64,000 nucleotides of DNA from Lingula anatina (Eukaryota; Animalia; Brachiopoda), in NCBI GenBank assembly GCA_051362555.1, contig CM120645.1:23650934-23714933 (forward strand), in the 5' to 3' direction. The position numbers were made by a program, and so were the translations under genes. Positions 25,501 to 28,500 of this stretch are shown here, one piece after another. Numbering within the stretch: the stretch's first letter is position 1; each line of letters opens with the position of its first letter. The notes beneath the pieces are model-generated. The model had not been told where the DNA came from and ran no database searches. It was given only the letters and a program-made list of their open reading frames with translations.

Positions 25501-28500
25501 GACATTAAAACAAGTAAAGTCCACCACTCTCATTTGTTTAGTATGCTACGGTAATTAAGATGAATGTAGCCAGGGTTAGTATATGAAGCAAAGGCAAGCC
25601 TAGTTAAGAAGTTAAAAAGTCATCACATCAGTGTGGTTTATGATTAGTATAGCGCACTACACTACAAATCAATGATACATATCAACTTCAAATCAAAATT
25701 TCTTTCAATTTTTTCAGTACTTACAACAGCATATTGGAACAGAGAATGAAAGAGAAAAGGAGCTTGTCCTTTTCAAAGAGAGATCTACAGACGTTGGTAT
25801 ACAGATTCAATGTGAAGTGTTCTGACAAGTAACGCAGGCGTTTCTCCAGGATCTTGGATTTGTTGCTGAAATTGACCAATAGGAATCAAGGTTTTATTCT
25901 ATGCGAGTAGCCTTCTATAGAAACCCTGGAAGTTTCTATGTCCCTGGTGGTGGGAAAACACACCTCAATGTCAATCTCATTCAGAAGCATCAATGCTGGC
26001 GAAGAATGGATTTCAGATTTGACTGCAGATTTGGGACAAAGCATGCTAGCTAGTGAAAATGATTGCCACACATAATATTTCCTTAGTTCAAAAAGCACTG
26101 AAAATAAGAATGCAGGCTTGGGGAATTGTATTAAAGCAGGCATGCTGGGTAGGGAGGGTTTCTACTGTAACCCCTAAACTAATATCTGCTGATCTAGACT
26201 CTCAATTCTACGGAAGTGGGGAACAAACTGTAAGGAAGAATGCTTATATATACATTCCAATTTGCCATTCTGGTAATTTCTATACATACGCAAGCACTGA
26301 AAGTAAAAAATGCAGATTTGGATGCCATTTTGAAGGATGCATGCTGGGTAGCTAGGGATGAAATCAAATTCTAGCAGCTACATGTATGCTCCATCCATCT
26401 ACTTCCTCCTCTTCACATCTCATTCTGAGTACTTACAATTCCAAATTAGCACACATATAAAATGAGAAGACCAGCTTGTCTTTTGCAAACAAGGATCGGC
26501 ACACATTGGCGTACAAGTTGTACTCAAAGTGGTTTCTGAGATAGCGTATGCGCTTTTCTAAGATCTTCGATTTATTGCTGAAATAAATAGCATATGATGA
26601 AGCCAGCCACTGCAAAATGCACAGCTATTATTCCACTCTTGTATAATATTTTGACTGTAAATTCCTCACAAAATTGCTGAAAAGGTTAATTAATTATTTA
26701 AAAAATATCCTTTTCATCTTATACACAGCTTTCCGTTATTTTTCCAATGACTGATAGAAAAAACGATACACAAATATTGCATACCAGCTAGTTCTACAAA
26801 ATAAAGAGGGAAGTGCCCCAAAAATTGTTTGAAAATATTACATACATTTACTTTTCTTATAAATATTCTAGAAATCAGCTACTTGCAAATATTCATGCAA
26901 AATACAACACAAGATCTAACTGACATTTGGGCCTCCATGTCATTTTCTCTAGCTATTTCAATCAAGACAAACCAGCTTGAAATACTAGACAATGGCAGAT
27001 GAGACATGAAAATTACTTTCATCTGATAAGAAACAGATGAATTATAACTGGAACAAGAGAATGGTAACATTTCACACCTTTTAGTAATATGAAATACATG
27101 CTTATGACAAAAAAAAAAAAATAATAATAAATAAATAAGATAATACGTTTCATAATATACTGAAAATTACTTAAAAATCTGTTTTTTTACATTCTTCTTA
27201 AATGTATCTACTCTTTAAAGCAGAAATTATTCAGAGCTTAATATCAAGTTTAACTCACATCCTAACTCTACATTTATGTATTCGTCTAAATGGATGTCTA
27301 TTTAAAGCAGAACAATTTTAAAAACCTCCTAACAATTTATAAATTCGCAAGTAAAAAGTAACATCTGATATCAGTACCAGGCCACGCCCCTCTCACCTGT
27401 CCTGTATGGAGTTAATGTAGAGGTTAACAAACCACATCAGTGAGTACTGGTACATGGGGTCTATGTTGGGCAGATCAGCAATGGAGAAGAACAGGTTGGC
27501 AGAGTGTTTGGCGATGGGCTGGTAGCCCACACGAGACGCCTCGATTTTCTTCTCTGTTTCCTCTGCGATCTGGATATCAATGTATGGTATTGTTATGTAA
27601 TGTAGAAATCATGTTCAAATTGGTTTAAATTGAAAAAAAAAAAAAAAAAACATATACCATATGATATAATTTAAGCACTTGGTCTCATAAAACATAAAAA
27701 AAAAATAATAATAAAACAAAGACATAAATATTAGTGACAAAAATATTTGTGACCATTAGAAAATGGTAAAAGTTCTCTCTCTCTCTCTCCCACAGATGGC
27801 AGTGTCCACATCAACTTACAAAACTTTTTCTAGTAGCTAAACAGTAATTCATTCTGGATTTAAAATATCATTTTTCTTTTGTGAAAAAAACATACAACAT
27901 TTCGCAAAATATTCCTACCTTTTGCTTCTTAGAGATCTCATCTGAAAGAATCTTGGAGGAGTCTAAGATCTGAATGGCGGACTCGTCTTCCAGAATGTTG
28001 CCCTCAGAGGCTGACAGAGTGTGTAGAATCTTGTCCTCTACCTCCTTCAGCTGACGGTTGTTGGCAGCGCTGGTCTTGATCAAACTCTGCCTTTCTTCCT
28101 CCAACTCTGGCCTAGATGAATGGAAAGATCAGACATTTTTATAAGTACAGAAGACTACAGTATGCACGGTCAAAATCTGTCGGTATATCTTGACAGCCAA
28201 TCAGACAATAGGAATGCCAATTGCAAAATATCCACTCAATTGCACAATTATCCAAAAGTTGCCTTGGCAACAAAATTGATTGCAATCAACTTTGTTGTCA
28301 AGGCAAATGGTCCCAAAAATAACTTGAATAAAATTATATTACAGTTCGTTTCAATGTATGTACATTTACAGAAGTCTGAAACAATAGTAGAATGATTTTT
28401 TAAAAATCTTCGGCTAAACAGCATATGGTGTGGAATGGCCTTTTACCTTTCTTTGGCGACCACGATACCCAGCAGCTGATCTTCCAGCCCCTCTGGGGTG

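Follow-up and report, generated by a model that had tools for sequence, protein, structure and literature searches.

A tandemly duplicated, singly spliced exon pair in the motor of the axonemal dynein DNAH12 of Lingula anatina, likely a very old switch shared across Spiralia

Among dynein heavy chains, the closest described system is SmDHC1 of Schistosoma mansoni, a cytoplasmic dynein heavy chain reported to contain a mutually exclusive exon (Pillmann 2011, PMC3228551), and some dynein heavy chain (DHC) genes, left unnamed, are said to have splice forms of the motor domain (Kollmar 2016, PMC5100056). Clusters of mutually exclusive exons (MXEs) are established in muscle myosin heavy chain genes, and certain clusters date back to Bilateria or to Protostomia (PMC3912159). 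With respect to the control of such exons, Rbfox proteins activate an exon when bound downstream of it and repress one when bound upstream, and both effects operate at the IIIb/IIIc pair of FGFR2 (PMC2777236). A literature search, with most subscription papers outside its reach, returned no description of such exons for an axonemal dynein, passages of PMC7441323 and PMC11270918 included; two of the three files of the Kollmar 2016 supplement hold no match, and the third may bear on novelty. An ancient exclusive exon pair in the motor of an axonemal dynein, of the kind presented here, has apparently not been described before.

The pair was found in a stretch of 64,000 nucleotides from the brachiopod Lingula anatina, hereafter the window, whose gene is DNAH12, also called DHC7C (PMC5100056 supplement), the heavy chain of inner-arm dynein a (PMC11779644). 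The encoded protein matches L. anatina records, and the alternative exons, designated A and B in the order of transcription (Table 1), are identical to the DNAH12 records P0015 and P0127 of this species; Pfam motor domains and record names, in place of a full-length tree, lead to the same assignment. The preliminary description, made from the letters alone, had located the pair after the buttress in the motor of an axonemal inner-arm dynein, and solved structures agree: the best match of exon B is DNAH12 residues 3179-3224 (71 bits, with DNAH7 at 53 bits), and A and B each align to this stretch, both encoding the same structural element. The pair lies between the Pfam domains AAA_9 (2940-3160) and D6 P-loop (3452), with no Pfam model covering the alternative exon itself. 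No second copy of any other DNAH12 exon was found within the window, and within-species isoform comparisons revealed no further exclusive-type block in the protein. In passing, the Pfam microtubule-binding stalk (PF12777) is present in Lingula DNAH12 (window 32985-31857), and DNAH12 has been described as having no microtubule-binding domain (PMC11949491). Head-to-head with the gene, about 1.3 kb from the first mapped DNAH12 codon, lies an IQUB gene on the plus strand (window 57195-64000), the best matches of which are IQUB and FAP253. Given that IQUB belongs to radial spoke 1, a promoter shared by two axonemal genes is possible.

Table 1. Features of the DNAH12 locus and its alternative exons (positions in the window)
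Feature	Position	Strand	Remarks
DNAH12 gene (DHC7C; heavy chain of inner-arm dynein a)	13594..55863 (ends approximate)	-	~60 introns (59 mapped)
Upstream exon, constitutive; end of buttress, probably H6-H7 of AAA5S	27397..27569	-	RNA junctions
Intronic stretch with sense-strand read pile	26820..27030 (bounds approximate)	-	two RNA runs
Alternative exon A (141 nt), of the derived spiralian type, with a weak donor	26437..26577	-	
A/B intron, 571 nt; three GCAUG in degenerate repeat	25866..26436	-	
Alternative exon B (141 nt), of the ancestral-like type, with a weak donor	25725..25865	-	
Downstream exon, constitutive; start of AAA5 extension	24855..25013	-	RNA junctions

The two exons are equal in length (141/141 nt) and in phase (2-2), are flanked by ttcag acceptors and gtaagtact donors, and stand 571 nt apart. 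Counting split codons, 35 of 48 residues are identical, without stops or indels, and 22 of these 35 shared residues are written with different codons; the substitutions noticed at the outset (S>R, E>N, T>E, E>A, L>E) are all present. Nucleotide identity amounts to 91/141. Synonymous sites are saturated (pS 0.99) and dN is 0.23, in keeping with the old duplication and the selection on both copies that had been proposed, the selection being purifying. Similar length, same phase, splice sites and homology are thus all found, as in a tandem-duplicated MXE cluster. The donors score 5.6 (A) and 4.5 (B), the 10th percentile over the 59 mapped introns of the gene being 6.1. Gene conversion between the window's A and B was considered and rejected, third positions matching at just 7/20 and 12/27.

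Evidence for use of the exons one at a time comes from RNA. Nine runs carry the same species label, and seven of them (X1, X2, X3, X4, X5, X7 and X8) were examined, each in part. All four single-exon junctions that the proposed exclusive use calls for were recovered, in 21 reads from four runs: upstream-A in 5 reads (X8), upstream-B in 2 (X2) and 3 (X8), A-downstream in 1 (X4) and 3 (X7), and B-downstream in 7 (X8). Of the two outcomes named beforehand as speaking against the proposal, that one copy is never spliced in and is unconserved or that both are always co-included, neither was encountered, A and B each occurring in single-inclusion reads. Among the junctions listed in the seven runs, at low depth and with a floor of 3 reads in one run, there was none that joins A to B or skips both, and A-B reads numbering 2 or fewer in a run would escape such a listing; X1, X3 and X5 had no junction listed at the exon pair. 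Run X7 has 3 A junctions and no listed B junction, and X8 has 5 A and 10 B, a difference that is not significant (p 0.07). The reads diverge from the window by several percent and therefore come from other individuals, and depth over exon B at likeness 85 was set aside because of paralogue reads in X2 and X5 (loose ends 25748 and 25803). Given the low depth and several database models that join A and B, both Lingula RefSeq models and one Saccostrea RefSeq isoform among them, strict exclusivity is only partly shown. Apart from the junctions, a pile of reads without listed sequence differences (about 6 in X2 and 2 in X3) stands in the intron upstream of A. Acceptor-like sites are found at 27047 and 27022 and a donor-like one at 26846; the stretch also contains the sole UGCAUG near the exon pair (26899-26894), and may represent a poison exon, a terminal exon or pre-mRNA.

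Homologue searches and cluster look-ups yielded 130 spiralian gene models that cover the exon, 55 with B, 54 with A and 21 with both in tandem. In 13 species besides Lingula, namely 8 bivalves, 2 gastropods, 1 chiton, the nemertean Lineus and the cestode Spirometra, one locus has A-only and B-only isoform models, which are equal in length and differ at this exon alone; Littorina is outside this count because its A and B belong to two gene models. Tandem A-then-B models or ORFs occur in 16 species groups. By contrast, A-type or double copies number 0 of 77 in non-spiralian invertebrate models (cnidarians, Trichoplax, acoels, echinoderms, hemichordates, amphioxus, a tunicate and Limulus) and 0 of 68 in vertebrate models, the vertebrate exons being classed by sequence, outside the tree described below, and an extra homologue search with the A-type region gave 14 matches and no new A-bearing taxon. 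According to gene models, A stands alone in 11 schistosomatid species and B alone in 3 opisthorchiids, 2 octopuses and the annelid Owenia; in such lineages a single form may be enough. Taeniid cestodes retain both. Among 80 metagenome loci, four have more than one exon copy. L016 and L029 carry A then B, and L009 carries A, a divergent middle copy and B, the A-type and B-type exons of all three being 141 nt long with AG/GT borders; L004 has two B-type copies (667-1120), and the coral-like L007/L008 and L002/L003 have a single copy between the flanking exons. The divergent third exon of L009 (L009:3280-3420) has intact splice sites. Dreissena models contain A plus two B forms, and such extra duplications on the B side (Dreissena, L004, L009) indicate that the exon duplicates readily. 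At this exon pair, the annotation is probably incorrect in many gene models, those of Lingula among them.

The pair and its A-first order are common to brachiopod, nemertean, mollusc and flatworm records, lineages whose split is Cambrian or older, and its presence in molluscs, ribbon worms and flatworms makes a very old switch likely. The duplication is accordingly older and wider than first proposed, being shared across Spiralia. A tree was built from 77 distinct exon sequences over 46 columns, the first copy of Dibothriocephalus being left out because its model reads into the intron. In this tree, 30 A sequences separate from 47 B and outgroup sequences with support 98/85, and the first copies of L009, L016 and L029 group with A at 95/96. 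Identity to outgroups is 85% for B and 69% for A, which marks B as ancestral-like; identity is 0.67 within A versus 0.82 within B, and this faster evolution of A makes long-branch attraction among A copies possible. Changes in A recur at exon positions 14, 18, 23, 31, 33 and 36: position 18 is other than T in 25/30 A, versus T in 28/28 B, and E31A, D33H and L36V are found in 19/30, 26/30 and 21/30 A, respectively. The window's A has four of these signatures (R14, E18, A31, V36), with D33 retained. The net charge amounts to +5 in 20/30 A and to +4 in 23/28 B.

Two ways of keeping the exons apart were rejected for the window. The A+B junction is open and in frame (141 = 3 x 47) and has no stop, so the reading frame cannot enforce exclusion, as had been noted at the start. 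Steric exclusion requires a donor less than about 50 nt away from the branch point (PMC5740500), and the A/B intron of the window has 571 nt and many AG sites; in L016, this intron is 54 nt long (L016:1103-1156), and steric exclusion of co-inclusion may fit that lineage. A third route is control by an Rbfox-type factor, for which the preliminary description pointed to a repeated GCATGCTGGGTAG at 26140 and 26339 and a GCATGC at 26041. The positions are right, but these are plus-strand readings, and on the transcript strand the motif in the A/B intron is AGCAUG, not UGCAUG. GCAUG lies at 26344, 26145 and 26046, each time within a degenerate intronic repeat of ~100/200 nt. It stays a candidate Rbfox element, with three copies in the intron downstream of A at each of three loci (the window, L009 and L029). 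The motif had been proposed from sequence before enrichment was assessed; these introns (1170 nt) contain 3/3/3 GCATG, whereas the flanking introns, 4291 nt in all, have 4 (p 2.9e-4), the enrichment ranks 2 of 1024 5-mers, and GCATG and the overlapping TGCAT are the only ones to reach a count of three in every intron. Compared with dinucleotide shuffles of the individual introns, the enrichment is weak (P 0.04, 0.16 and 0.13 for the three introns), three or more GCATG occur in 5% of 571-nt windows of this gene, and the three of the Lingula intron come from one repeat; the A/B intron of L016 has no GCATG. The threefold recurrence behind A in three loci suggests Rbfox-type control, and in combination with the positional rule and the FGFR2 case it favours a scheme that we hold with evenly balanced confidence: B would be the default, and an Rbfox-type factor bound downstream of A, and hence upstream of B, would activate A and repress B. 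A search on Rbfox in the germ cells of flatworms brought nothing of use. As further observations, acceptor-like sites come after all three GCAUG repeat units; with a score of 11.7, that at 26296 exceeds both real acceptors, and such sites may act as decoys; the 1824-nt intron at window 28641-30463 contains five GCATG, the most in the gene.

As for the place of the exon in the motor, AAA5S is a five-helix bundle, in which H5-H6 form the buttress and behind which the C-terminal helix runs (PMC4047620); it moves as a block with AAA6L, and an AAA5S mutation blocks the motility of dynein-1 (10.1101/092791). By helix count, the 47 residues that are exchanged probably correspond to helices H8-H9 of this small domain. 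The AlphaFold model of a homologous fragment, P0003, has helices at 259-288 and 290-304, with the exon at 257-302, and a fold search with it returned dynein matches alone; its pLDDT is below 50 over 252-285, most of the exon, so the H8-H9 placement is a predicted one. Given that AAA5S bears the buttress, shifts together with AAA6L and lies against the C-terminal helix, A would retune ring-to-stalk coupling or a contact with a partner, rather than catalysis.

That the pair has a single origin, one duplication in the spiralian ancestor, is in our judgement very probable. The competing view, of separate duplications in several phyla followed by convergence of the upstream copies, can appeal to single AU tests, in which a clade of A with B is not rejected for Lingula (p 0.23) or flatworms (p 0.15), the values for molluscs and Lineus being 0.044 and 0.048, and also to the additional B-side copies of Dreissena, L004 and L009. 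When the clades are taken jointly (37 sequences), however, four independent duplications are rejected (p-AU 0.002) and so are two (p-AU 0.036), A leads in 21/21 tandem models, and no pair was found outside Spiralia among the models examined, which leaves independent duplication improbable. More remote still is the reading that both copies are normally co-included, or that one of them is a silent relic. An A+B junction is in frame and 21 database models contain it, those of Lingula RefSeq among them; yet two of these tandem models run into the A/B intron (copy spacing 62 and 67, not 47), as gene-prediction artefacts do, exclusive isoform models exist in 13 species, and the 21 junction reads, which cover both exons, are all of single inclusion, so this reading is already largely refuted and can be regarded as very improbable.

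Competing RNA duplexes, a docking site with a selector, might exclude one exon in place of a protein, and RNA-pairing elements had been suggested in the intron. A 16-nt pair, 94% complementary, does span exon A (26940-26955 with 26047-26062), but it is one among 82 found and A+T rich, and the best duplexes were equalled or beaten by 25/25, 5/25 and 1/25 shuffles (25 shuffles per pair, 24-nt windows); the suggestion is dropped, and duplex-based exclusion appears quite unlikely. As to use, a split between sperm and soma is put forward tentatively, as a candidate at a little under even odds. Taeniids are not known to have ciliated larvae or ciliary bands, motile axonemes being limited to flame cells and sperm. 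The retention of both copies by taeniids, together with the mouse, in which loss of DNAH12 affects sperm flagella and not cilia (PMC11949491), favours this split. Other divisions are conceivable with somewhat less than an even chance: the pair may separate ciliary bands from other cilia, neurons from epithelia, life stages or positions along the axoneme, or may reflect passive subfunctionalisation with little mechanical difference. Run X8 holds both forms, some lineages have one form alone in their models, and spiralian-specific protein motifs have been linked to ciliary bands (PMC7441323), all of which would suit such divisions, but the recurrent signature residues of A are kept across four phyla and taeniids hold on to both copies.

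Taken together, it is likely that A and B are singly spliced exons, probably from one spiralian duplication and under Rbfox-type control, that would provide different motors for different ciliated cells, most readily sperm versus somatic cilia; the A and B motors would differ in AAA5 small-domain helices between ciliated cell types. In its most specific form, a spiralian-wide switch, Cambrian or older and run by Rbfox, that fits inner-arm dynein a to sperm and to somatic cilia through two ring-to-buttress helices, the proposal is doubtful. Axonemes are thought to be tailored mainly by separate dynein genes and accessory proteins, and a conserved exon swap within one inner-arm motor adds a splicing route. 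A and B make up a natural pair of motors, about a dozen residues apart in AAA5S, that offers a direct test of force or speed tuning by this subdomain. Oyster, mussel, snail and planarian-type models lend themselves to isoform-specific tests. The pair is also a candidate shared character of Spiralia and, if the proposal is true, both the axonemal counterpart of the exclusive exons of myosin and a molecular marker of the group.

Compared with the known systems, the locus is like FGFR2 IIIb/IIIc and egl-15 5B/5A, which are under Fox-1/Rbfox, in having (U)GCAUG beside an exclusive pair, and in FGFR2 the elements sit in the intervening intron, where they activate the exon before them and repress the one after (PMC2777236); binding and genetics have been shown for those genes, whereas for DNAH12 the case is a motif count, with AGCAUG in the window. 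Like myosin (Kollmar and Hatje 2014, PMC3912159), DNAH12 diversifies a motor domain by tandem exclusive exons; myosin has many clusters and a known muscle-type use, and DNAH12 has one cluster in ~4000 residues. RefSeq isoforms of DNAH12 (X1/X2 of Magallana gigas and of Lineus) already encode A-only and B-only forms, but these mollusc and nemertean entries are automatic and carry no description, and other annotations, Lingula's too, fuse both exons. SmDHC1 shares with DNAH12 equal-length homologous tandem exons with split codons in a dynein heavy-chain gene; its pair is cytoplasmic and predicted from sequence, while that of DNAH12 is axonemal, has RNA junctions and extends over four phyla.
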